Positions 21,545 through 52,242 are shown, counted from the stretch's first letter. The stretch is DNA of 64,000 nt from Aeromonas sp. (GCA_051658125.1 JBOFMA010000139.1:4660-68659), one strand, 5' to 3'. Notes: generated by a model from the sequence alone, not told the origin. Translations and numbers: made by a program.

Positions 21545-21629
21545 GCGAAGGTGGCGGAATTGGTAGACGCGCTAGCTTCAGGTGTTAGTGCCTTCGGGTG
21601 TGAGGGTTCGAGTCCCTCTCTTCGCACCA
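21545..21629 (+). tRNA. tRNA-Leu (CAG)
   Basis: GCGAAGG..CCA, anticodon loop TT-CAG-GT, long variable arm, TTCGAGT T-loop. Confidence 0.98.
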
Positions 21630-21682
21630 TACTGCTCTGCGGTGTTCCGCCACAGATAAATCAAAATTGGAAAATCTAATGT

Positions 21683-21767
21683 GCGAAGGTGGCGGAATTG
21701 GTAGACGCGCTAGCTTCAGGTGTTAGTGCCTTCGGGTGTGAGGGTTCGAGTCCCTCTCTTCGCACCA
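21683..21767 (+). tRNA. tRNA-Leu (CAG)
   Basis: Identical to the first copy. Confidence 0.98.
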
Positions 21768-21832
21768 TGAACTGACATGTAAAAACAGTGCCATGCCCCA
21801 TTGCATGTAAAAGATATGGGAACAATCAGTGT

Positions 21833-21918
21833 GCGAAGGTGGCGGAATTGGTAGACGCGCTAGCTTCAGGTGTTAGTGTCCCACGGATGTGAGGGTTCGA
21901 GTCCCTCTCTTCGCACCA
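21833..21918 (+). tRNA. tRNA-Leu (CAG)
   Basis: Same body as the other copies; variable arm differs (GTCCCACGGAT instead of GCCTTCGGGT). Confidence 0.98.
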
Positions 21919-34900: not shown

Positions 34901-34952
34901 AGCACTCTCTTAAATTAACGGCAGGTGATGGGATTAGCGTAACGCAGAAACG

Positions 34953-34982
34953 AAAAAGCCCGAGTGATGAAATCACTCGGGC
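34953..34982 (-). terminator. Terminator of the first tRNA-Ser
   Basis: GCCCGAGTGAT-GAA-ATCACTCGGGC hairpin with a U tract on the minus strand. Confidence 0.85.
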
Positions 34983-34991
34983 CAGAATAAA

Positions 34992-35079
34992 TGGCGGAGG
35001 AGGTGGGATTTGAACCCACGGATGGTCGCCCATCGCCGGTTTTCAAGACCGGTGCATTCAGCCGCTCTGCCACCCCTCC
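34992..35079 (-). tRNA. tRNA-Ser (TGA)
   Basis: Reverse complement GGAGGGG..GCCA, anticodon arm CCGGT-CTTGAAA-ACCGG, long variable arm; 88 nt. Confidence 0.97.
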
Positions 35080-35391
35080 GCAGCAGTGGGCGCATGTTAT
35101 AAAGCCTGAAGTGGCTTGTAAAGCCTATTTTGCTGTAAATTAGCTGTTTGCGATGTGAGTGCTGTTTTTTTGCGCGCCAACGCGTGTTTTTTGTGCAATC
35201 GACGGTCATTTACCTGTAAATTCAGTGCGCTGTATTGCCAGTAATAGCGAGGGTTAAATCGATCAAAGCGCTGATTTATCGTGCTACGCATAAAAAATGC
35301 GAGTTATTGGCATATATAGTCACAGTCAACAGGGCAAAAGCGCTAAACTTGCCCACTATTTTTGTAATACAGTTCACGGTTCATCATCATC

Positions 35392-36417
35392 ATGTCTGAC
35401 TCTTCCCCATTGCGCTTTCCCAAAGGTTGGTTTGCGTTAGCTTCTGTCTATAGCTTTACCGCATTAGCCATTTTGGCTTCAATGATATTTTCGCTGCTGC
35501 TGTTTTTGTCCATCGACAATGATCCGCTAATGCGTTTGCTGTTTGGCGGTTTGGCCATTTTGTTTGAATTTGGCAAATTTTACGTCTGGTACGAGTATGG
35601 CGAGCGCAAAGCGCATGGCAACTTAAGCGGTGCCTTATGGTCGTTGGCCTTCTATATCATTTTGGCGACGATCTCTATCGGCGGCAGTATTGGTGGCATT
35701 AATAGCGCGACTAACAGCGTGCTTAACGCACAGGCGCAATATGAGCGTAAAATCGCGCGTTTTGATCAGCAAATTTTGAGTATTGAGCGGCAAATTAAGC
35801 TCAATGAAGAGGCGGCGCGCAAATATATTGAATTAGAGCGTATTGCCCGTGGCGTGTCGGCAATTCAAGAAGCCAACGCCAAACTGCAGCAGCAACAAGA
35901 TGAGTTGCGCCTGCAGCGCGATGCCACGCCACTCAGCGAGCAATCCTCAGTGCTGGGTTTAATGAGCAGTTTGGCCGATGGCCTAGCGCTGAGCATTGCG
36001 CAGGTGCAATTTATGTTAGTGTGCTTCTTATCTGTGCTACTTGATGCTTTTGGCGCCTTTTTTGTCAGTTTGATCGGTGAAGAGCATCGCTTTCGCCAGC
36101 AATGGCGGCAGCAGCAAGCCGCGTTGGCGGCGGCGGCGCGGCAAGCCGCGCCAGAGGAAGAGCCTTTGCCCTTGCTGGCGATGTCACAAGTTGATCTGCA
36201 GTTAGCGCACAAGGTGCAAACAGCATTAGAGGCGGGCGAGGTTGCCTGTAGCAAACGTAAAGTGGCGCAATATTTTGGCTTAACGCTCGAAGAGGTGGAT
36301 AGCGTGTTTAAATATTTGCTGACGCAAGGTGTGCTGGAGCAGGGCAATAATCGCCACTATTACCTGCAAGCAGAGGTTATGCCGACAAGCGATCTTGGCG
36401 GCGCGCTGGCCTCTTAG
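35392..36417 (+). CDS. Uncharacterised membrane protein: N-terminal TM helices, coiled coil, further TM, C-terminal winged-HTH-like domain
   Basis: Hydrophobic segments at about aa 12-102 and 190-228, heptad-rich region at about aa 105-180, C-terminal SKRKVAQYFGLTLEEVDSVFKYLLTQGVLEQGNNRHYYL. Confidence 0.8.
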   Translation: MSDSSPLRFPKGWFALASVYSFTALAILASMIFSLLLFLSIDNDPLMRLLFGGLAILFEFGKFYVWYEYGERKAHGNLSGALWSLAFYIILATISIGGSIGGINSATNSVLNAQAQYERKIARFDQQILSIERQIKLNEEAARKYIELERIARGVSAIQEANAKLQQQQDELRLQRDATPLSEQSSVLGLMSSLADGLALSIAQVQFMLVCFLSVLLDAFGAFFVSLIGEEHRFRQQWRQQQAALAAAARQAAPEEEPLPLLAMSQVDLQLAHKVQTALEAGEVACSKRKVAQYFGLTLEEVDSVFKYLLTQGVLEQGNNRHYYLQAEVMPTSDLGGALAS

Positions 36418-36482
36418 CGTTCGTATCTGGTAACCCTGCGGCCCATAGCGGCCGCAGGGTTTTATCTGCGGGGCAGAAAAGC

Positions 36483-36511
36483 AAAAAACCCAAACGATAA
36501 ATCGCTTGGGT
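36483..36511 (-). terminator. Terminator of the second tRNA-Ser
   Basis: Minus-strand ACCCAAGCGAT-TT-ATCGTTTGGGT (one G.U pair) followed by a U tract. Confidence 0.8.
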
Positions 36512-36520
36512 CAGAATAAA

Positions 36521-36608
36521 TGGCGGAGGAGGTGGGATTTGAACCCACGGATGGTCGCCCATCGCCGGTTTTCAAGACCGGTGCATTCAGCCGCTCTGCC
36601 ACCCCTCC
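36521..36608 (-). tRNA. tRNA-Ser (TGA)
   Basis: Identical to 34992-35079. Confidence 0.97.
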
Positions 36609-36622
36609 GCAGCAGTGACGGC

Positions 36623-36651
36623 ATAATAGCGAGCCGCTTTTGGCCTGTAAA
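36623..36651 (-). promoter_or_regulatory. Sigma70 promoter for the second tRNA-Ser
   Basis: Minus strand TTTACA-17 bp-TATTAT. Confidence 0.7.
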
Positions 36652-36759
36652 GGACAAAATTGCAAAAACAAGTGCGTTCGCGCAAACTTTAAACAAAGCG
36701 CCTAAAAATAACACTTTTTTTAGCGTAAACCTTGACTTAATAAGCGGCTAAATCACTAT

Positions 36760-37548: not shown

Positions 37549-37638
37549 CGTGCGCTGGCCAAGGCGCGTGCGCCTTGGCCTATCCATCGTTTAGCGCCTG
37601 CGCTAAAATTCCCGCCCCTTTTTTGCGGTCTTGTTGTT

Positions 37639-38748
37639 ATGCAATTGCTTCGCTCGCGTCTTGAGCTACTCAAAAACCTCATCATTTTAGAAGAGCAAGC
37701 GCTGTTGGCGCTGCAAATGACCCATCTGGCGCCGTATGCTGAGCAATACCCCGCGATCGCGGCGTTAATCGAGGCGATTCATGCCGGCCGCTATGGCCAA
37801 GCGCAGCAGATCACCTTGGATTTTTTGCAGGCACAAACGGGGCTGGTGCGCGCCGATGAAGCGCAAGCGGCGGCATTGGCGTTTGAGGCCAAGCAATTGG
37901 AAAATCAGCTGCAGATCTTGATTGAGCAGCAGGCCGAGCAGCAAGCACGCTTGGATGAATTTAACTTTTTGCATCATCGCGCGTTAAGCCCGCTGCTAGC
38001 CGAGGTGCTGGCGGCGCGGCGGCAGCTGGCTACGGACCGCTTTAGCCTGTTAGGTATGCCACTGCGTGTGCAACATGCGCAATTGGCCCAGCAAATCCGC
38101 GCGTTGCAAGCCCAGCAGGCAGAAATTAATGCTACCTTGGCCAGTTTGGCTAGTAGCCCGCAGTATGCTGAGCGCGCGCAAGCGCAAGAGGATTTTGCCG
38201 CCTTTACGGCCGATAAAGCCAAGGAGCAGGCGCGTTTTGCCAGCCTAGATAGCCTAAGTGACAGCGAATTGCTGGAATTAAAGCGCTTGTATCGCCGCGC
38301 CTGTAAATTGACCCATCCTGATCTGGTCGATGATGCGCTGCGCGCCGAAGCGCACCAAAAAATGGTGGCGGTAAATAGCGCCAAAGAAGCCGGCGATTTG
38401 GCGTTGCTGCGCCAACTGCTGGCTGAATTAGAAAGCGGCCTTTGGCGTCAGCCTGCAGTGCTATTTAGTAGCGCAGATAAATTGCGCCAGCGCATCACGG
38501 CCTTAGAGGCGCAAATTGCCACGCAAACGCAGCACTTGGCCGCGCAGCAAGCCGATGACACCTTGATGGCGATTTTGCATGCTGACGATTTGGCTACCTA
38601 TTTTGCCTCCCAGCGCCAGGGGTTGAGCGAACTGCTCGGCCAATTGCAGCAAGAGCAGCAGACTTTGGCGGGGCAGTTGGCGCACTATCAAGCGCAATTA
38701 GCGGCGTTGCAGGGCAGTTCGGCGTGTGAGGAGGCCGCGTATGAGTGA
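37639..38748 (+). CDS. Coiled-coil protein with an internal J-domain (HPD motif)
   Basis: ELKRLYRRACKLTHPDL..AHQKMVAVNSAK; HPD at aa 226-228 (38314-38322), flanked by long Q/L/A-rich heptads. Confidence 0.85.
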   Translation: MQLLRSRLELLKNLIILEEQALLALQMTHLAPYAEQYPAIAALIEAIHAGRYGQAQQITLDFLQAQTGLVRADEAQAAALAFEAKQLENQLQILIEQQAEQQARLDEFNFLHHRALSPLLAEVLAARRQLATDRFSLLGMPLRVQHAQLAQQIRALQAQQAEINATLASLASSPQYAERAQAQEDFAAFTADKAKEQARFASLDSLSDSELLELKRLYRRACKLTHPDLVDDALRAEAHQKMVAVNSAKEAGDLALLRQLLAELESGLWRQPAVLFSSADKLRQRITALEAQIATQTQHLAAQQADDTLMAILHADDLATYFASQRQGLSELLGQLQQEQQTLAGQLAHYQAQLAALQGSSACEEAAYE

Positions 38749-39523
38749 AGGGGCGAAAACCGCGTTGCGCGTGCAAGCCGCCGAACGCGCGCTGCAAGTT
38801 TTGCCGCAGGCACATCTAGCCAGTGCGCTGCGCGCCAAGCAGTGGGTGCAGTTAACCGACAAATTACTGGCTGAGCGCCGCGGCACCACTACGCCGGCTG
38901 CCCTCTTAGCCACCAAACCGGCTGCGCGCGATTTGCCGCAAACCAGCAGCGATGCGCTGGCTAGCTTGTGCCAGTGGGCCGATGAGTGCCAGATCCCGGC
39001 GCACGTGTTGCCGCGAGATCATGCGGCGCTTGCCGCGCTCACCGTGCTGGATTTTGGTGGTTTAACCGATAGCGAACGGGCGGCGATTACCTATTTGCCG
39101 CCGGCGATTGGCGAGCTGCGCCAGTTGATCAGCTTAAATTTGTGGTCATGCATTCAGCTGCGCGCCTTGCCCGATACCTTGGGTCAGCTCAGCGCGCTGA
39201 GCAAACTCGATTTATCGTTTTGCATCCACTTGTCGGTGTTGCCGCCGAGCTTGGGCCAATTGCAGGGCTTACAAAGTTTGCAGCTGCGCAGCTGCAATAA
39301 CTTAACCGCTTTGCCAGAAAGCATTGGCCAGTTGCAGCGGCTAAAAAGCTTAAACTTGGGCTCGTGCTGGAGCCTGCGCGCCCTGCCGGCCAGCTTTGAG
39401 CAACTGCTTGGGCTGGAGAGTTTAAACCTCACCGCCTGCTGGAGCTTAAAAGTGCTGCCGCAGCGCTTTAAGCAGCTAACGCAACTGAAAATCAAAGCCG
39501 ACCACGCGTTTACTTACCGCTAA
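38741..39523 (+). CDS. Leucine-rich repeat protein
   Basis: ATG 38741 after GAGGAGG, overlapping the upstream stop by 8 nt; six 24-aa repeats LxxLPxxxGxLxxLxxLxLxxCxx. Confidence 0.9.
   Translation: MSEGAKTALRVQAAERALQVLPQAHLASALRAKQWVQLTDKLLAERRGTTTPAALLATKPAARDLPQTSSDALASLCQWADECQIPAHVLPRDHAALAALTVLDFGGLTDSERAAITYLPPAIGELRQLISLNLWSCIQLRALPDTLGQLSALSKLDLSFCIHLSVLPPSLGQLQGLQSLQLRSCNNLTALPESIGQLQRLKSLNLGSCWSLRALPASFEQLLGLESLNLTACWSLKVLPQRFKQLTQLKIKADHAFTYR
39086..39517 (+). repeat. Degenerate 72-bp tandem repeats encoding the LRR units
   Basis: Units start at 39086, 39158, 39230, 39302, 39374 and 39446; the last is partial. Confidence 0.85.
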
Positions 39524-39587
39524 GGGCAAGAGCCCGCTACGCGCTGAGCCTTTATTTGGCTAGCGCGCGGCGGGTGGGCCGCTTTTT

Positions 39588-40151
39588 TCAGGCAGGTTGC
39601 GCTGCTAGTAGCGCGCGAAAGTGCGCCCAATCAAACGCCGTGCCCGGGTCAGTTTTGCGCCCCGGCGCTATGTCACTGTGGCCGACAATCTGCGCATCAC
39701 CTAACGCCGGATAGGCGGCTTGCAACGCGCACGTGAGCTCGGCCAGGCGCTGATATTGCGCCGCCGCATAGGGCACATCGTCACAGCCCTCTAATTCAAT
39801 ACCAATCGAATAGTCATTACAGGCCGCGCGGCCTTGCCAGCAGGATTGTCCGGCATGCCAAGCGCGCGCGCTAAATGGCACATATTGCACCAACTCGCCA
39901 TCGCGCCGGATCAGGCAGTGCGCCGAGACTTGCAGGTGCGCAATTTCGGCAAAGTAGGGGTGCGCTGCGGCGTCGAGCTGGCCCTGAAACAGTTGATCTA
40001 TCCACGGCCCACCAAATTGGCGCGGCGGCAAGCTAATGCCGTGCACCACGAGCAGGGAAATATCGTTGGGCTCGGCGCGAGCATTGCAGTGCGGCGAGGG
40101 CACATGGCGTGCTTGTGGGCACCAGCCATCAGCAGTCAACGTCAAGGTCAC
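39588..40151 (-). CDS. ampD: 1,6-anhydro-N-acetylmuramyl-L-alanine amidase
   Basis: SPHCNAR, VVHGISLPP, VSAHCLIRRDG, AWHAG, SIGIELEG and GHSDIAPGRKTDPG motifs. Confidence 0.97.
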   Translation of the reverse strand: MTLTLTADGWCPQARHVPSPHCNARAEPNDISLLVVHGISLPPRQFGGPWIDQLFQGQLDAAAHPYFAEIAHLQVSAHCLIRRDGELVQYVPFSARAWHAGQSCWQGRAACNDYSIGIELEGCDDVPYAAAQYQRLAELTCALQAAYPALGDAQIVGHSDIAPGRKTDPGTAFDWAHFRALLAAQPA

Positions 40152-40405: not shown

Positions 40406-43120
40406 ATGTCAAATCCGCACAGCTACTCCCCGCCCCCTTATCATGCCACTGCCGCCGACATCGATGCTAAAGAAACCCTCGAATGGTTGGCCTCGCTCGA
40501 CTCACTGCTGCGCAGTGACGGTGCGCCGCGGGCGCAGTTTGTGTTAGAGCAGCTGCTGGCCCATGCGCGGCACTGTGGCTTAGCAATGGGCGCCAGTCGC
40601 CCAGCCGCCGAGGGGCTGCGGCCGGATTATCTCAACAGCATCGCGGCCAGTGATGAGCCGGCGTATCTCGGCGATCTGGCCATTGAGCAGCGCATTCGCG
40701 CCATTATCCGCTGGAATGCAATGATGATCGTGCTGCGCGCCTCACAAAAAGATCTGGATTTAGGCGGGCACCTCTCCTCGTTTGCCTCTTCGGCCACTTT
40801 GTATGATGTCTGTTTTAACCACTTTTTCCGCGCGCCCAATGGCGCCGATGGCGGCGATCTGGTGTATTTTCAAGGCCATATTTCCCCAGGCATTTATGCC
40901 CGCGCCTTTGTCGAAGGGCGCTTAACTAGCGAGCAATTGGATAATTTTCGCCAAGAAGTTGGTGGCGGCGGCTTGCCTTCTTACCCGCACCCCAAGCTGT
41001 TGCCGGAGTTTTGGCAATTTCCCACGGTATCGATGGGCCTTGGGCCGATCTGCGCCCTGTATCAGGCGCGTTTTTTAAAATACTTAACCGATCGCGGCCT
41101 AAAAGCGGACACGGGGCAAAAAGTGTATGCCTTCTTAGGCGATGGCGAAATGGATGAGCCGGAAAGCAAAGGCGCCATCACGGTGGCGGCGCGCGAGCGG
41201 TTAGATAACTTGGTGTTTGTCATCAACTGCAATTTGCAGCGCTTAGATGGCCCTGTGATTGGTAACGGCAAGGTGATCAATGAGCTGGCTGGTATTTTTG
41301 CTGGCGCCGGCTGGGAAGTGATCCAGGTGATCTGGGGCAGTGGCTGGGACACGCTATTGGCCAAGGATACCAGCGGCAAATTAGTCCAGTTGATGAATGA
41401 AACCTTAGATGGCGATTACCAGACTATGAAATCGCGCGATGGCGCCTATGTGCGCGCGCACTTTTTTAATCGCTACCCAGAAACGGCAGCGCTGGTGGCC
41501 GACTGGAGCGATGAGCAGATCTTTGCCTTAAATCGCGGCGGGCATGATCCGTGCAAACTGTTTGCCGCCTTTAGCCGAGCGCGCACCAGCGTAGGCAAAC
41601 CGGTGGTGATTTTGGCCAAAACCATCAAAGGCTATGGTATGGGCGAGGCGGCGGAGGGCAAAAACATTGCCCACCAAGTGAAAAAAGTTTCGCTCGATTC
41701 GGTGCGCCACCTGCGCGATCGCTTTGATTTGCCGGTGGCCGACAGCGATTTGGCGGCGCTGCCCTATTTGAGCCTCACCGAAGGCAGCCCCGAGCATACC
41801 TATTTGCATACCAAACGCCGCGCCTTGGGCGGCTATGTGCCGAGTCGCCGGCGCGAAAGCCAAGTGGCGCTCAGCGTGCCAGAACTTGCGCTATTTGCGC
41901 CGCTACTTGGCGAGCAAGCCCGCGAGATCTCCACCACCATGGCCTTTGTGCGCAGCTTAAATCTGCTGCTTAAAGATGACAGTTTGGGCAAGCGTATTGT
42001 GCCGATTTTGGCCGATGAAGCGCGCACCTTTGGTATGGAAGGGCTGTTTCGCCAGATCGGCATTTACAGCTCGCACGGGCAAAACTACATCCCGCAAGAC
42101 AAAGAGAGCGTGGCTTATTACAAAGAAGATAAGCAGGGGCAGATCCTACAAGAGGGCATCAACGAGCTCGGCGCCATGGCCTCGTGGCTGGCGGCAGCCA
42201 CCAGTTACAGCACCCACGACTGCCCAATGCTGCCGTTTTATATCTACTACTCGATGTTTGGCTTTCAGCGGGTGGGCGATTTGGCTTGGGCTGCGGGTGA
42301 CAGCTGCGCGCGCGGCTTTTTGCTTGGCGCCACCGCTGGGCGCACGACCTTAAATGGCGAAGGGCTGCAGCACCAAGATGGTCACAGCCATATTCTGGCC
42401 AGCACCATTCCCAACTGCATCGCATATGACCCCGCGTATGCCTATGAAGTGGCGGTGATTTTGCAAGATGGCTTGCGCCGCATGTATGGCGCAGCGCCGG
42501 AAAATGTCTTTTATTACCTGACCCTGCTCAATGAAAACTATGCCATGCCGGCTATGCCTGCGGGTGCCGAAACGGGCATAGTGCGCGGTATTTATCCGCT
42601 CGAACAGGTGCCGGTGGCCAGCGGCGCGCCGGTGGTGCAACTGCTCGGCTCAGGCGCGATTTTGCGTCATGTGCGGCAAGCGGCGCAAATTTTGGCGCGC
42701 GATTATGGCGTGGCCAGTACGGTGTTTAGCGTCACCTCGTTTAACGAATTGGCCCGCGATGGCCAAGATTGCGCGCGCTGGAATCGCTTGCACGCCAACT
42801 TACCGCCGAAAGTGGGCTATTTGCAGCAAGCCTTGGCCGCCTTACCCACGGTGGCCGCCACCGATCACATGAAAGCCTATGCCGAGCAGGTGCGTGCGTA
42901 TGTACCCTCGGCGCAGTTTGAGGTGCTCGGCACTGATGGCTTTGGCCGCTCAGATAGTCGCGCTAATTTGCGCCGCTATTTTGAAGTGGATGCCGCGCAC
43001 ATAGTGCACGCCGCCTTATATCAACTGGCGCAAAGCGGCGCGGTGAGTCTGGATGTGCTCGCGCGCGCGCAAGCTGAGCTCGCGATTGCGGGCGATAAAC
43101 CTAATCCGCGTAATGCCTAA
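40406..43120 (+). CDS. aceE: Pyruvate dehydrogenase E1 (homodimeric type)
   Basis: LGGHLSSFAS, FQGHISPG, QFPTVSMGLG, GDGEMDEPES (TPP binding) and EGLQHQDG motifs. Confidence 0.97.
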   Translation: MSNPHSYSPPPYHATAADIDAKETLEWLASLDSLLRSDGAPRAQFVLEQLLAHARHCGLAMGASRPAAEGLRPDYLNSIAASDEPAYLGDLAIEQRIRAIIRWNAMMIVLRASQKDLDLGGHLSSFASSATLYDVCFNHFFRAPNGADGGDLVYFQGHISPGIYARAFVEGRLTSEQLDNFRQEVGGGGLPSYPHPKLLPEFWQFPTVSMGLGPICALYQARFLKYLTDRGLKADTGQKVYAFLGDGEMDEPESKGAITVAARERLDNLVFVINCNLQRLDGPVIGNGKVINELAGIFAGAGWEVIQVIWGSGWDTLLAKDTSGKLVQLMNETLDGDYQTMKSRDGAYVRAHFFNRYPETAALVADWSDEQIFALNRGGHDPCKLFAAFSRARTSVGKPVVILAKTIKGYGMGEAAEGKNIAHQVKKVSLDSVRHLRDRFDLPVADSDLAALPYLSLTEGSPEHTYLHTKRRALGGYVPSRRRESQVALSVPELALFAPLLGEQAREISTTMAFVRSLNLLLKDDSLGKRIVPILADEARTFGMEGLFRQIGIYSSHGQNYIPQDKESVAYYKEDKQGQILQEGINELGAMASWLAAATSYSTHDCPMLPFYIYYSMFGFQRVGDLAWAAGDSCARGFLLGATAGRTTLNGEGLQHQDGHSHILASTIPNCIAYDPAYAYEVAVILQDGLRRMYGAAPENVFYYLTLLNENYAMPAMPAGAETGIVRGIYPLEQVPVASGAPVVQLLGSGAILRHVRQAAQILARDYGVASTVFSVTSFNELARDGQDCARWNRLHANLPPKVGYLQQALAALPTVAATDHMKAYAEQVRAYVPSAQFEVLGTDGFGRSDSRANLRRYFEVDAAHIVHAALYQLAQSGAVSLDVLARAQAELAIAGDKPNPRNA

Positions 43121-44506: not shown

Positions 44507-45943
44507 ATGGACAACACCCTTCAAGCGCAGTTAACCACGCAAGTTTTGGTGCTCGGCGCCGGCCCCGCCGGTTATTCAGCGGCGTTTCGCGCCGCCGATT
44601 TAGGTTTAGATGTTGTGTTGGTGGAGCGGCACGCCCGCTTGGGCGGCGTGTGCTTAAACGTAGGTTGTATCCCGTCAAAAGCGCTGCTGCATGTGGCCAA
44701 AGTGATTGAAGAGGCTAAAGCGCTGGCCGATCACGGCATCGTATTTGGCGCGCCGCAAACCGATATCCATAAGTTGCAGGTGTGGAAAGAAAAAGTCGTC
44801 GGACAGCTCACCCTGGGGCTTTCGGGCATGGCCAAGCAGCGTAAAGTCAAGGTGTTGCAAGGCGAAGCGCATTTTACCGGCAGCCACAGTGTGCGCGTGA
44901 CCGCGGCCAGCGGCGTGACCGAGGTGAACTTTAGCCATGCGATTATCGCCGCGGGTTCGCGCCCGATCACCTTGCCGTTTATCCCCCATCAGGATCCGCG
45001 GGTATGGGATTCCACCGACGCCTTGGCGCTGGCGCATGTGCCGGGGCATTTGCTGGTGCTCGGTGGCGGGATTATTGGCCTTGAGATGGCAACGGTGTAT
45101 TCGGCGCTCGGCAGCAAAATTGATGTGGTGGAATTTGCCGACCAACTGGTGCCGGCGGCCGATAGCGATGTGGTGCAGATCTATACCCAGCGCGTGGCGC
45201 ACAAATTTAATCTGATGCTAGAAACCAAAGTGGTGGCGGTGGAAGCCAAGCCTGAGGGGCTGTTTGTCTCCTTTGAGGGCAAGAATGCCCCCGCCACGCC
45301 CGTGCGCTATGACAACGTGCTGGTGGCGGTGGGACGCACCCCCAATGGCGCCTTGCTGGGCGCGGACGCTGCGGGTGTCGCGGTGTCAGATCGCGGGTTT
45401 ATTAGCGTCGATAAGCAGATGCGCACCAATGTGGCGCACATTTTTGCCATTGGCGATATTGTTGGCCAGCCGATGCTCGCGCACAAAGGCGTGCACGAGG
45501 GGCACGTGGCGGCGGAGGTGATCGCTGGTAAGGCACACTACTTTGAGCCGCAGGTGATCCCCTCGATTGCCTATACCGAGCCAGAAATTGCCTGGGTTGG
45601 GCTAACGGAAAAAGAGGCCAAAGCGCAGGGGCTGGCAATTGAGGTGGCGCGCTTCCCGTGGGCGGCCTCGGGCCGCGCGGTGGCCTCCGATTGCAGCTAT
45701 GGTTTAACTAAGCTTATTTTGGATCCGGCGACGGGGCGCGTGCTGGGCGGCGCGATTGTCGGCACCAATGGCGGTGAGTTACTTGGTGAAATTGGCTTAG
45801 CGATTGAAATGGGCGCCGATGCCGAAGATCTGGCTTTAACTATTCACGCCCACCCGACGTTACACGAATCGGTAGGGCTGGCGGCCGAGGTTTACGAAGG
45901 CTCGATTACCGATCTGCCCAATGCCAAAGCGGTGCGCCGCTAA
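44507..45943 (+). CDS. lpdA: Dihydrolipoamide dehydrogenase E3
   Basis: GAGPAG, CLNVGCIPSK and HAHPTLHE motifs. Confidence 0.98.
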   Translation: MDNTLQAQLTTQVLVLGAGPAGYSAAFRAADLGLDVVLVERHARLGGVCLNVGCIPSKALLHVAKVIEEAKALADHGIVFGAPQTDIHKLQVWKEKVVGQLTLGLSGMAKQRKVKVLQGEAHFTGSHSVRVTAASGVTEVNFSHAIIAAGSRPITLPFIPHQDPRVWDSTDALALAHVPGHLLVLGGGIIGLEMATVYSALGSKIDVVEFADQLVPAADSDVVQIYTQRVAHKFNLMLETKVVAVEAKPEGLFVSFEGKNAPATPVRYDNVLVAVGRTPNGALLGADAAGVAVSDRGFISVDKQMRTNVAHIFAIGDIVGQPMLAHKGVHEGHVAAEVIAGKAHYFEPQVIPSIAYTEPEIAWVGLTEKEAKAQGLAIEVARFPWAASGRAVASDCSYGLTKLILDPATGRVLGGAIVGTNGGELLGEIGLAIEMGADAEDLALTIHAHPTLHESVGLAAEVYEGSITDLPNAKAVRR

Positions 45944-48518: not shown

Positions 48519-51146
48519 ATGCAGCACATGTCCACTTCCGAGATCCGCGCCGCGTTTCTTGACTACTTTAATCGCCAGGGCCACCAAGTGGTCTCCTCGA
48601 GCTCGCTCGTTCCGCATAATGACCCGACCTTGCTGTTTACCAACGCAGGCATGAACCAGTTCAAAGATGTGTTTTTAGGCGCCGACCAGCGCGCGTATAA
48701 CCGCGCTACCTCATCGCAGCGCTGCGTGCGCGCCGGCGGCAAACACAACGATTTGGAAAACGTAGGTTACACCGCCCGTCACCACACGTTTTTTGAAATG
48801 CTCGGCAACTTTAGCTTTGGCGATTACTTCAAAGTTGATGCAATTAAATTTGCTTGGGGCTTTTTGACCGAAGTGCTGCAACTACCAGAAGAGCGCCTGT
48901 TGGTCACTGTGTATGCCAGCGACGACGAAGCGTTTAACATCTGGGAAAAAGAGGTCGGTGTCCCAGCCGATCGCATCGTGCGCATTGGCGACAACAAGGG
49001 TGCCCCCTATGCCTCAGATAACTTCTGGGCGATGGGCGATACCGGTCCGTGCGGTCCGTGCACCGAAATCTTCTTTGACCACGGCGATCACATCTGGGGT
49101 GGCCCTCCAGGTTCAGCAGAAGAAGACGGCGACCGCTTCATCGAGATCTGGAACGTGGTCTTCATGCAGTTTAACCGTCAAGCCGACGGCCGCATGGAGC
49201 CGTTGCCACGCCCATCGGTTGACACCGGCATGGGCTTAGAGCGTATTGCCGCCATCATGCAGGGCGTGCATTCCAACTACGAAATCGACATTTTCCAAGC
49301 GCTGATCAAGCGTGCGGCGGCGATTGTCGGTTGCGATGATTTAGGCAACCAATCGCTGCGCGTGATTGCTGACCACATCCGCTCGTGCGCCTTTTTGGTA
49401 GCCGATGGCGTGATGCCGTCCAATGAAGGTCGTGGCTATGTGCTGCGCCGCATTATTCGCCGCGCCGTGCGTCATGGCCGCAAATTGGGCGCCACCGAGG
49501 TATTTTTCTATCAGTTAGCTGCTGAATTGGCCGAGCAGATGAAAGATGTCGCCGGTGAGCTGATTGCCCAGTTGCCACAAGTTGAGCGTGTGCTGCGTTT
49601 GGAAGAAGAGCAGTTTGTGCGCACCTTGGATCGCGGCTTGCTGCTGCTTGAAGACGTGCTGGCCAATTTAGGCGATGCGCAAGAGATCCCCGGCGATGTG
49701 GTGTTTAAGCTGTATGACACCTATGGCTTCCCTGCTGATTTAACCGCCGACGTCGTGCGTGAGCGCAACTTAAATATTGATGAGGCCGGCTTTGCCGCCG
49801 AGATGCAAAAGCAGCGCGCCCGCGCCAAACAAGCCTCAAGCTTTGGCATCAACTATAACGACGTGCTGAGAGTCGACTTAGACACGCCGTTTGTCGGCTA
49901 TGAGTGTCTGAGTGCTAGCAGTAACGTCGCTGCGCTGTATAAAGACGGTGCCGCGGCCAGTGCGCTTATCGCTGGTGAAACCGGTGTGGTGGTGTTAAAT
50001 GAAACGCCATTTTATGCCGAATCTGGTGGTCAGGTTGGGGATGCCGGTCGCCTGCAATTTGACGATGGCCTGTTTATCGTCACCGATACGCAAAAAGCCG
50101 GTAAAGCTATTATTCACCACGGTTATGTCGAGCTCGGCAGCTTAGAGCAGGGCATGGCAGTGGCGGCACACGTTGATGGCGTGCGTCGCCAAGCCACCGC
50201 GCTGAATCACTCCGTGACCCACTTGCTGCACAGCGCGCTGCGCAATGCCTTAGGCGAGCACGTGAGTCAAAAAGGCTCATTAGTGGGCCCACAGCGTATG
50301 CGCTTTGACTTTGCCCATTTTGCAGCGGTCGATAGCGCTAGCCTGCGCCAGATTGAAGCGGCAGTGAACCAGCAAATTCGTGCCAACCATGTTATCGCGA
50401 CGCAATTGATGAACTTGGATGCTGCCAAAGCTGCCGGCGCTATGGCGCTGTTTGGTGAGAAATATGATGACGACGTGCGCGTAGTGAGCATGGGCGATTA
50501 TTCCACCGAATTGTGTGGCGGCACCCACGCCAGCCGCACCGGTGATATCGGCCTGTTTAAGATCGTGAGCGAAAGCGGTATTGCTGCTGGCGTGCGCCGG
50601 ATTGAAGCGGTGACCGGCCAGGGCGCGATTGAGTTTTTGCATCAATTGGGCGAAAGCGTGGATGAAGCGGCTGCATTAGTGAAAGGCGATGCTTTCTCGC
50701 TGGCGGAAAAAATGCGCCAAGCCTTGGACAAATCCAAGCAGCTTGAGCGTGAGTTGGCGCAGCTCAAAGCTAAATTGGCCGCGCAAGCGGGCAGCGATTT
50801 GGCCAGCCAAGTGAGCCAAATCAACGGCCAGCAAGTGCTGATCGCCACCTTAGACGGCGTTGATCCTAAGTCGTTGCGCGGTACCTTAGATGAGCTGAAA
50901 AACCAGCTCAAATCAGCGGTGGTGCTGCTGGCGACCTCGGGCGAGGGTAAAGTAAACCTCATTGCTGGGGTGACCGATGATTTAACCGCGAAAGTGAAAG
51001 CGGGTGATCTGGTTAAACTAGTGGCCGAACTGGTCGGCGGTAAAGGCGGTGGTCGTGCCGATATGGCGCAAGCCGGCGGCAGCGATCCGGCGGCCGTGCC
51101 AGCGGCGCTCGACGCGGCGCGCGCATGGCTTAGCCAGCAGCTCTAA
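48519..51146 (+). CDS. alaS: Alanine-tRNA ligase
   Basis: [42 protein letters not shown] and ELCGGTH motifs. Confidence 0.99.
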
Positions 51147-51829: not shown

Positions 51830-51922
51830 GGAGAGGTGGCCGAGAGGCTGAAGGCGCTCCCCTGCTAAGGGAGTATGCGGCTTATACCCGCATCGGGGGT
51901 TCGAATCCCCCCTTCTCCGCCA
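51830..51922 (+). tRNA. tRNA-Ser (GCT)
   Basis: GGAGAGG..GCCA, anticodon arm CTCCC-CTGCTAA-GGGAG, long variable arm. Confidence 0.98.
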
Positions 51923-51931
51923 TTTTCTTGG

Positions 51932-52008
51932 GCGCCCGTAGCTCAGCTGGATAGAGTACCTGGCTACGAACCAGGTGGTCAGAGGTTCGAATCCTCTCGG
52001 GCGCACCA
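51932..52008 (+). tRNA. tRNA-Arg (ACG)
   Basis: GCGCCCG..ACCA, anticodon arm CCTGG-CTACGAA-CCAGG. Confidence 0.98.
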
Positions 52009-52034
52009 TCAAGATGGCATACAACAATTTATGA

Positions 52035-52111
52035 GCGCCCGTAGCTCAGCTGGATAGAGTACCTGGCTACGAACCAGGTGGTCAGAGGTTCGAATCCTCT
52101 CGGGCGCACCA
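52035..52111 (+). tRNA. tRNA-Arg (ACG)
   Basis: Identical copy. Confidence 0.98.
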
Positions 52112-52165
52112 TATTTCAACTTTGTTGCTTATCGTTGATAGCGCGACAGGGTAACAATTTATTGA

Positions 52166-52242
52166 GCGCCCGTAGCTCAGCTGGATAGAGTACCTGGCTA
52201 CGAACCAGGTGGTCAGAGGTTCGAATCCTCTCGGGCGCACCA
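52166..52242 (+). tRNA. tRNA-Arg (ACG)
   Basis: Identical copy. Confidence 0.98.

Follow-up and report, generated by a model that had tools for sequence, protein, structure and literature searches.

The locus described here consists of two overlapping plus-strand open reading frames (ORFs), found by ORF calling and by reading of the sequence at positions 37639 to 39523 of a 64,000-nucleotide stretch of Aeromonas sp. DNA (GCA_051658125.1 JBOFMA010000139.1:4660-68659), the whole of which is called the window below. The upstream gene (37639..38748, 369 aa) encodes a coiled-coil scaffold with a J-domain, hereafter the J protein; its call is backed by 609 relatives and by an AlphaFold2 model with an overall predicted local distance difference test score (pLDDT) of 83.5. 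The downstream gene (38741..39523, 260 aa) encodes a cytoplasmic leucine-rich repeat (LRR) protein, hereafter the LRR partner, recognised by Pfam and by homologs that lie downstream of other J genes. The ATG of the LRR gene (38741-38743) precedes the TGA stop of the J gene (38746-38748), giving an overlap of 8 nt, and a Shine-Dalgarno sequence, GAGGAGG (38728..38734, + strand), lies within the end of the J gene, 6 nt 5′ of this ATG. The same ORF could also start at a GTG (38726); the ATG is preferred because the partner homologs all begin with MS(E/K/S/N/D). The LRR frame, open from the GTG, is the +1 frame relative to the J gene, and a +1 shift within the last 20 nt of the latter would give a J-LRR fusion like the natural ones reported below; there is no evidence that this occurs.

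Upstream of the pair, directly 3′ of the stop of a scsC/dsbA-like gene, a 10-bp GC-rich hairpin, GGCCAAGGCG..CGCCTTGGCC, can be read on the plus strand (37557..37580). Its stem is perfect, it carries no T-run and it was not called by the terminator scan; it could be an element similar to a repetitive extragenic palindrome (REP-like) or a variant of a Rho-independent terminator, and probably marks the boundary between the J-LRR unit and the gene upstream. Downstream, the terminator scan called a terminator-like hairpin, GCGGCGGGTGGGCCGC, followed by TTTTTT (39567..39590, + strand), 44 nt after the LRR stop. The 8-nt overlap, the Shine-Dalgarno sequence and the single terminator after the pair suggest that the J and LRR genes form one translationally coupled unit. 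A preliminary description of this DNA, made from the sequence alone, had given the same layout: the 369-aa ORF with an HPD motif at residues 226-228, the 8-nt overlap and the GAGGAGG are all present.

The relatives of the J protein were collected by an exhaustive HMMER search against 1.84 billion representatives, which gave 609 sequences at E<=1e-3, 204 at E<=1e-10 and 6 at E<=1e-30. Most of them matched in two stretches, corresponding to residues ~4-133 and 175-340 of the query. A word-indexed homolog search with the same protein returned one relative only. The motif, fusion and size counts given below rest on 149 family representatives.

The AlphaFold2 model of the J protein is all-helical. 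It begins with a family-specific domain (37639..37839, aa 1-67) of four helices (2-16, 20-33, 38-48 and 52-67, pLDDT >90), which is conserved in the family and reads KRLELIKNxIxLEDxxLI in the consensus of a 25-sequence alignment; this domain has no Pfam match and no PDB sequence match. A single helix of about 100 residues follows (37855..38151, aa 73-171) and is presumed to form a coiled-coil stalk, in line with the coiled-coil protein of the preliminary description. Within the stalk an MPL motif (aa 140-142) is clade-specific, M140, P141 and L142 being invariant in the five closest, LRR-linked members. Next comes an atypical J-domain (38260..38430), in which helix II (aa 208-225), the HPD (226-228, nt 38314-38322), helix III (232-250) and helix IV (254-264) are modelled with moderate confidence (pLDDT 72-79 over residues 208-264). 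The protein ends with a helical region (38470..38745, aa 278-368), conserved in the alignment and the model, where Y321-F322 is nearly invariant. All these parts are encoded on the plus strand. Foldseek searches with the whole model returned coiled-coil noise only, with no match at E<0.001.

The J-domain assignment was examined at the level of the family. Twenty of the 25 aligned members match the Pfam DnaJ model (PF00226) at E<=0.01, and two relatives lie above its threshold (the J protein of locus L097 with 31.9 bits and P0087 with 28.3 bits). A family profile matched solved J-domains (mL77, auxilin, Tid1, DnaJ) at up to 1e-7, the matches being limited to helix II, the HPD and helix III. In the 25-sequence alignment, whose central consensus reads LKxLYRKASKLCHPD...A.E.M..LN.AY...D, residues H226, P227, D228 and K215 are invariant and Y218 and R219 nearly so; the HPD is kept in 148 of the 149 representatives, and the sole exception looks frameshifted. 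K215, Y218, R219 and R220 align to R22, Y25, K26 and R27 of Escherichia coli DnaJ, the basic residues of helix II, which we take to be contact residues in the complex of DnaK with the J-domain. Because the HPD is near-invariant and the basic face of helix II is kept, we infer that the family works through Hsp70. The J-domain call thus appears sound for the family, though it is weak for the window protein alone, and the internal J-domain of the preliminary description is upheld at that level by the DnaJ matches, the matches of the profile to solved structures and the invariant HPD. The J protein belongs to a sizeable, uncharacterised family of scaffold-type J-domain proteins (JDPs) with an atypical, strongly conserved J-domain.

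The LRR partner scores above the Pfam cut-offs for LRR_14 (58.7 bits versus 40) and LRR_8 (33.3 versus 27) and also matches LRR_4. No signal peptide or transmembrane segment was recognised on reading its sequence, which agrees with its earlier designation as cytoplasmic. Its AlphaFold2 model (pLDDT 87.4, predicted template modelling score 0.74) has two N-terminal helices of moderate confidence (3-20 and 23-48), a cap helix (70-82) and a solenoid (100-255) with pLDDT >95. The second helix holds a peptide, WVQLTDKLLAERR (38843..38881, aa 35-47), a candidate docking helix whose K41 is invariant in the partner alignment. It is followed by a disordered linker (38885..38926, aa 49-62; pLDDT <50), seen as an insertion relative to other partners in the alignment, and by the LRR N-cap, LCQWADECQIPAHVLPRDHAALAAL (38948..39034, aa 70-98; pLDDT 97), which is kept in partners and at fusion junctions. 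The solenoid itself (39038..39505) contains approximately six or seven 24-residue repeats, as judged from Pfam, the periodicity of the model and Foldseek, with the consensus LxxLxLxxCxxLxxLPxxxGxLxx, and presumably offers the ligand-binding surface. These features lie on the plus strand. Foldseek retrieved Leptospira LIC12234 (1e-9), the plant helper NLRs (nucleotide-binding LRR receptors) NRG1/ADR1, SHOC2 and XopL (4fcg), and NCBIfam gave partial matches to XopL, XopAE and XopAC (105, 97 and 94 bits versus cut-offs of 500, 600 and 450) over LRR segments only; likewise, in a homolog search with the whole LRR protein, matches were confined to the LRR part. Neither protein of the pair carries an NTPase domain (NACHT, NB-ARC or STAND) detectable with Pfam or NCBIfam.

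The association of the two genes recurs. A J gene adjoins an LRR gene in seven independent loci, whose GC content ranges from 28 to 58% and which include the three closest J homologs, 37-46% identical to the window J protein. In these three, the LRR gene overlaps the J gene by 4 nt (L007, J protein P0062, 46% identity), starts 20 nt downstream (L099, P0063, 41%) or again overlaps by 4 nt (L100, P0064, 37%). A fourth locus (L102, P0065, 34%) has the J gene, a gene for an Mrr_cat-like membrane protein and the LRR gene, all overlapping; another, with a more distant J protein (L067), has J, LRR and then a homolog of this Mrr-like protein (43% identity). In a metagenome-assembled genome of Campylobacterota (L006, 28% GC) the J gene is followed by an LRR gene with an 11-nt overlap, and in L108 the LRR gene lies directly upstream of a gene in which a phospholipase D (PLD) domain is fused to the J module.

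In addition, six of the 149 representatives are covalent J-LRR fusions (P0097, P0100, P0135, P0139, P0183 and P0190). In all six the J module runs straight into a W..LW.WAD..IP..PR....L cap, as found in the window partner. The preliminary description had named a lack of conserved linkage as evidence that would speak against its proposal; linkage was found in the seven loci and the six fusions, conserved within part of the family and not universal. We conclude that a real conserved module exists, made of a J-domain scaffold and a repeat-protein specificity subunit.

Some fusions have further parts. P0183 (996 aa) contains a partial J N-domain with a WAD-LRR unit, an IF2_N domain, a complete J module, a second WAD-LRR unit and a methyltransferase-like domain, an architecture that corresponds to an internal duplication of the module. 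P0097, P0100, P0135, P0183, P0190 and also P0077 end in a conserved C-terminal domain of ~250 aa with two motifs, FEKIRRYCNNL...NGKM(H/Y)KALIYDALEQF and LVDWGCGQGIAS, the latter resembling motif I of S-adenosylmethionine-dependent methyltransferases; this domain has no Pfam match. P0077 is itself a J-family fusion with 0 Pfam families, in which no WAD cap or LRR motif was detected. A weak Hsp70 match in P0100 (22.7 bits) is absent in close relatives and was not relied on.

The N-terminal region of the LRR partners bears on how the two proteins might be held together. A motif L[TS]xK[LI][LVA] within the first 70 residues is found in seven of the eight LRR partners with a linked J gene; the 58 LRR homologs for which no J linkage is known all lack it. 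The motif reads LTDKLL in the window partner (aa 38-43), LTNKLL in L007, LTKKLL in L099, LTGKLL in L100, LSNKLV in L067, LTSKLA in L102 and LTNSII in L108. It is absent from the covalent J-LRR fusions, which is what one expects if the helix is a non-covalent tether. A search with the alignment of partner N-termini returned 4 proteins only, among them P0218, which is not J-linked. Unlike this motif, the WAD cap occurs also in stand-alone LRR proteins, for example in a 287-aa Psychrobacter family found in restriction-modification clusters. The distribution of the LTxKLL helix gives good comparative support to the docking-peptide proposal, and judging by it the helix, placed on a flexible linker, is likely to be a tether to the scaffold. 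The preliminary description had proposed that an N-terminal segment of the LRR protein docks onto the J protein, and comparison supports such a peptide: it is present in the linked partners, missing in the other homologs and in the fusions, and modelled as a helix followed by a disordered linker. That description also expected homologs to vary in their repeat domain while keeping the peptide. The repeat domain does vary and the peptide is kept in the seven of eight LRR partners; conservation does not extend clearly to the partners of other repeat types, which are considered with the arguments against our interpretation.

The stand-alone LRR proteins deserve a separate remark. Members of this 287-294-aa family without LTxKLL are encoded in L005 (4001-4864; Psychrobacter sp. 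van23A, CP132595.1), L002 and L003, and share a W..IWDW.DN.NI...PR cap with the J-linked partners. Their genes sit among type I restriction-modification, DNA methylase, Z1/HATPase and DUF2357/PDDEXK genes, and they possibly represent a defence-island LRR family in its own right.

The partners of the J module are of several kinds, as anticipated in the preliminary description. Besides LRR proteins we observed a tetratricopeptide repeat (TPR) protein whose gene overlaps the J gene by 8 nt, with a phage lysozyme neighbour (L097), a WG-repeat protein after a PLD-J fusion, with a HigBA-like pair nearby (L107), a WD40 protein encoded directly upstream of the J gene (L019) and ankyrin repeats fused to the J module (P0069). 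Enzymatic domains are also associated with the family. Twenty of the 149 representatives measure 450-499 aa, the size class of an N-terminal PLDc_2 fusion, and this fusion was confirmed in P0087, P0167, L107 and L108; in the defence database PADLOC the PLD part of P0087 and P0167 matches the DrmC and Mokosh PLD models. Superfamily 1 (SF1) helicases are fused to P0109 and P0141 and match PADLOC candidate systems, and P0206 carries a DUF4145. The Mrr_cat-like proteins encoded by the third gene of the J-LRR module in L102 (1579-2199) and L067 (2690-3379) are the two homologs mentioned above, the L102 copy having an N-terminal hydrophobic segment. Further neighbours include a HigBA-like pair (L018), Schlafen/AlbA_2 and AAA_15/23 proteins (L099) and an SNF2 helicase (L006). 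L097, L107 and L108 lie on IMG/VR viral contigs, and a viral scan for PLD-J fusions gave no loci beyond L107 and L108. Among the relatives, PADLOC models (DrmC, Mko, PDC-M16A, PDC-S68, PDC-M72A) match only the fused PLD, helicase and ankyrin parts, and J-only relatives match none.

Outside the linked loci, the family includes stand-alone enterobacterial members, which sit at ordinary chromosomal sites, are labelled 'DnaJ family molecular chaperone' and demonstrate that the scaffold also occurs with no sensor linked to it. One of them, a 391-aa protein (WP_001033457.1), is encoded between pheP and rclC among chromosomal-looking genes in Salmonella enterica (L101, NZ_CP149222.1); the 119-kb record is labelled a plasmid and may be a chromosomal fragment. 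By contrast, members of the LRR-linked clade are few and scattered over taxa that are very distant from one another. A metagenome scan kept 80 loci, which collapse to approximately six clusters and added little on linkage; a narrow contig search of genomes with a single pattern returned one locus.

The explanation that we consider best is that the two genes encode a two-subunit complex. One subunit would be the helical scaffold, with its N-terminal four-helix domain, stalk of ~100 residues, atypical J-domain bearing the Hsp70-contact residues and C-terminal helical region. The other, the small LRR solenoid, would be the specificity (ligand-binding) part, tethered to the scaffold via its N-terminal LTxKLL helix on the flexible linker. 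The LRR would bind a particular protein; the J-domain would then bring ATP-bound DnaK to the LRR-target complex and trigger ATP hydrolysis, upon which DnaK would clamp and remodel the bound target, or else remodel the scaffold itself as a switch. In this scheme the window holds the minimal form, a sensor with its J-adaptor and without a nuclease, whose output would run through DnaK itself. We give this overall explanation, a DnaK-recruiting sensor/adaptor complex, probably of the conflict-system type, a probability of roughly 0.5. Its parts differ in strength: that the pair is a real two-subunit module is very likely, that it acts through DnaK is, on the strength of the conserved residues, rather probable, and a conflict or defence role is a tentative proposal. 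Physical docking, DnaK engagement, the nature of the ligand and the defence role are what we infer from the comparisons above. The exchangeable sensors, the optional nuclease or helicase, the patchy spread over 28%-58% GC and the phage- or defence-like neighbourhoods resemble conflict systems, and a J scaffold combined with interchangeable repeat sensors and, in many members, a nuclease or helicase follows the grammar of a sensor-adaptor-effector anti-phage system. A bolder and more doubtful extension is that the family is an undescribed class of prokaryotic immune modules, in which a built-in J-domain would make DnaK the switch or the executor and the repeat sensors would recognise an invader protein. 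The invader would then be neutralised directly in two-gene forms such as that of the window, or the PLD or Mrr nuclease or the helicase would be unleashed in three-part forms; this would amount to chaperone-gated immunity without an NTPase of its own.

A number of observations weigh against the sensor/adaptor complex or its defence character. Taken alone, the window J protein matches Pfam DnaJ at E=0.0064 only (17 bits, below the cut-off of 27.8), over profile positions 13-51 of 63, and its model lacks a canonical helix I, a low-confidence loop (196-207) preceding helix II. The LTxKLL helix is missing from the partner encoded in L006, has only a loose counterpart in the TPR partner of L097 (NVLNKLL) and no clear one in the WG partner of L107. 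Stand-alone enterobacterial members account for 72 of the 80 metagenome loci, in addition to the Salmonella gene; P0002 is followed by a MerC gene and P0070 has small unrelated neighbours. Most of the linked loci are short contigs, so that their 'defence island' context is thin. In the window the neighbours are housekeeping genes: recG, dtd, yihY, two tRNA-Ser genes, a ScsC-like thioredoxin gene, ampD (opposite strand) and aceE-aceF-lpd. GC content (0.57 for the J gene, 0.59 for the LRR gene) and GC at third codon positions (GC3; 0.63 and 0.71) equal those of aceE and recG; the pair is compositionally native, with no classical island features. The preliminary description had placed it in a non-core stretch next to a tRNA: a tRNA-Ser gene (36521-36608) does lie 1 kb away, loosely in keeping with this, with the scsC/dsbA-like gene in between, and the core-like composition and core neighbours speak against the non-core part. 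No nuclease or other enzymatic effector was found near the pair, nor a Mrr-like homolog in the window. Defence databases, to which that description had looked for context, find nothing for the window pair (PADLOC-DB v2.0.0: best E 0.14 for the J protein, no match for the LRR protein), and PHROGs has no model for the J module.

Many of these points would suit a dedicated housekeeping or stress co-chaperone, in which the J protein and an LRR adaptor deliver one endogenous client or a class of them to DnaK, in analogy to HscB or AtcJ-AtcC-AtcB, and play no part in conflicts with phages. The native GC and GC3, the position among core genes, the absence of a defence-model match and of an effector enzyme in the window and the orthologues widespread as stand-alone genes in Enterobacterales at ordinary chromosomal sites all favour it, and there is a precedent for an operon-encoded specialised JDP that binds its operon partner via a short peptide (PMC6715715). 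Swapping among LRR, TPR, WG, WD40 and ankyrin partners is, however, not expected of such an adaptor, and neither are fusions to PLD and SF1 helicase domains, Mrr-like nuclease neighbours or phage and prophage contigs; the rare, patchy LRR-linked clade also fits horizontal spread better than vertical core inheritance. We therefore place a housekeeping co-chaperone second after the sensor/adaptor complex, as the chief competitor and yet a rather unlikely one. Occurrence of three family loci on IMG/VR viral contigs, one of them beside a phage lysozyme gene, would also agree with chaperone take-over or counter-defence by a mobile element, the scaffold redirecting or titrating host DnaK while the repeat protein picks the host target, and there is a documented case of a phage JDP binding DnaK and stabilising sigma-32 (PMC3486835). 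There are no prophage genes around the window pair, its composition is native, PHROGs holds no family for the J module, and prophage genes beside lysis cassettes serve in defence as frequently as in take-over, so that the viral context does not discriminate; take-over ranks third and is improbable.

Still less probable, in fourth place, is an exported effector pair that manipulates the Hsp70 and other targets of a eukaryotic host. J-domain effectors exist, HopI1 being an example, and the LRR protein shows the partial NCBIfam matches to Xanthomonas type III effectors and the Foldseek matches to XopL (4fcg) and to plant helper-NLR LRRs noted above. These NCBIfam scores are far below the cut-offs (105 versus 500) and concern generic LRRs only, no secretion system is evident among the annotated genes immediately flanking the pair (33-45 kb), and family members are fused to or accompanied by PLD and Mrr nucleases, helicases and a methyltransferase-like domain, some of them being found on phage contigs or in lineages that are free-living; the helix II residues fit the contacts of bacterial DnaK as well as those of any other Hsp70. 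Last comes an adjacency without functional link, or a degenerate J-like helix pair in what would be a plain coiled-coil adaptor independent of Hsp70. The sub-threshold DnaJ score, the lack of an evident helix I and the pLDDT of only 72-79 in the J part point in the latter direction. Chance adjacency is nevertheless difficult to reconcile with linkage in seven or more independent loci and six fusions, and a degenerate domain with an HPD retained in 148 of 149 representatives along with the basic residues, which is hard to explain without selection for Hsp70 activation; we hold both variants to be very improbable.

The sensor/adaptor complex was also compared with known systems. Class C (type III) JDPs such as Shewanella AtcJ with AtcC/AtcB (PMC6715715), HscB and auxilin likewise combine an HPD J-domain with an element specific for a client or partner. 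Here, in contrast, the peptide is on the partner and not on the JDP; the JDP is set apart by its unique N-domain and long coiled coil, and its J-domain, which is internal, has no clear helix I; the partner of the window type is a repeat solenoid that is exchangeable in the family, relatives carry nucleases or helicases, and there is no sequence relation beyond the J-domain. At the E. coli djlB/djlC-hscC locus, J genes are similarly interleaved with genes for solenoid-repeat proteins (the Sel1 proteins YbeQ/YbeT and the DUF1266 proteins YbeR/YbeU), but that locus has its own Hsp70 paralog, HscC, and the J-like region is N-terminal, whereas no Hsp70 gene adjoins the window pair. Membership in the DjlB/DjlC group was rejected (BLASTP E=0.21 to 2.6, hhalign probability 1.6%). 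In E. coli K-12 (L088; NC_000913.3, 674000-686000), djlB and djlC are each preceded by a DUF1266 gene and flanked by the Sel1 genes ybeQ and ybeT; this is a duplicated cassette of repeat protein, DUF1266 protein and J protein, similar in grammar to the J-LRR module and unrelated in sequence.

Among immune sensors, bNACHT25 requires host DnaJ for phage sensing (PMC12169576). It and the NLR-like STAND/NACHT and Avs sensors share with our family LRR or TPR sensors coupled to nuclease-type effectors and the involvement of the DnaK/DnaJ network in sensing; they differ in that the window pair has no NTPase domain and its J-domain is built in and not borrowed from the host, bNACHT25 itself having none. 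The GAP1-N2 GTPase conflict systems (Kaur et al. 2020, PMC7159879) include HSP70/GrpE and a fibronectin type III-repeat protein fused to a DnaJ domain or TPR. These predicted conflict systems resemble the locus in placing a J-domain on a repeat protein, which implies Hsp70-driven remodelling, but their defining genes, in Actinobacteria and Firmicutes, are those for GTPase, HSP70 and GrpE, of which the window pair has none as a neighbour; repeat type and J architecture differ as well. Xanthomonas XopL, XopAE and XopAC and Leptospira LRR proteins have the same solenoid of 23-24-residue LRRs. The window protein does not belong with XopL, XopAE or XopAC, to which it matches by the generic LRR part only, with scores approximately one fifth of the cut-offs and no E3-ligase, Fic or other effector domain. 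Rki of phage RB43, a phage-encoded JDP that binds DnaK and stabilises sigma-32 (PMC3486835), is comparable as a non-canonical JDP on a mobile element acting on host DnaK. Rki is small and stands alone, with neither a repeat partner nor a coiled-coil scaffold, and no homology to it was found (no match in PHROGs). None of the compared systems has the scaffold, the partner peptide or the partner set of the window family.

In agreement with the preliminary description, which knew of no described system of this layout, a non-exhaustive search of open-access papers and bioRxiv found no account of a J-protein and LRR operon or of the J family. To our knowledge, nearly all that is understood of bacterial JDPs comes from DnaJ, CbpA, DjlA and HscB. 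According to a recent survey of about 280,000 JDPs, structured regions that InterPro does not annotate are present in many 'J-domain-only' proteins (PMC10410713), and the present locus points to one such unannotated family, with hundreds of members, a fixed scaffold, a near-invariant HPD and modular partners and nucleases. Should the module prove to direct DnaK to a selected target, it would represent a natural, programmable Hsp70 adaptor with a separable specificity subunit attached via a short peptide, and could shed light on the way in which Hsp70 is guided to individual clients. Should it prove to serve in defence, no earlier system would have had a J-domain as an intrinsic component, and it would offer a mechanistic counterpart to phage sensing by bNACHT25 via host DnaJ.

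Apart from the gene pair, the window has some features of its own. With ~15 billion proteins grouped at 90% identity, even AceE, Lpd and an 875-aa conserved protein (40406-43120, 44507-45943 and 48519-51146) stay singletons. The locus is absent from public sequencing runs, the collections contain no genome closely related to this one, and a DNA search against E. coli gave no match; the lineage from which the DNA comes has been sampled poorly. Two identical tRNA-Ser(UGA) genes on the minus strand (34992-35079 and 36521-36608) lie within a 180-nt direct repeat (34944-35123 / 36473-36652, 84% identity), each with its own hairpin terminator showing compensatory differences. The repeats flank an ORF (35392-36417, 341 aa) of lower GC (0.51) with transmembrane segments, a coiled coil and a weak helix-turn-helix, for which no Pfam, PADLOC, PHROGs or PDB match was obtained; the region may be a small insertion or duplication with captured cargo. 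Finally, the window contains tandem tRNA arrays, with three copies of tRNA-Leu(CAG) and with tRNA-Ser(GCU) followed by three copies of tRNA-Arg(ACG) (21545-21918; 51830-52242).

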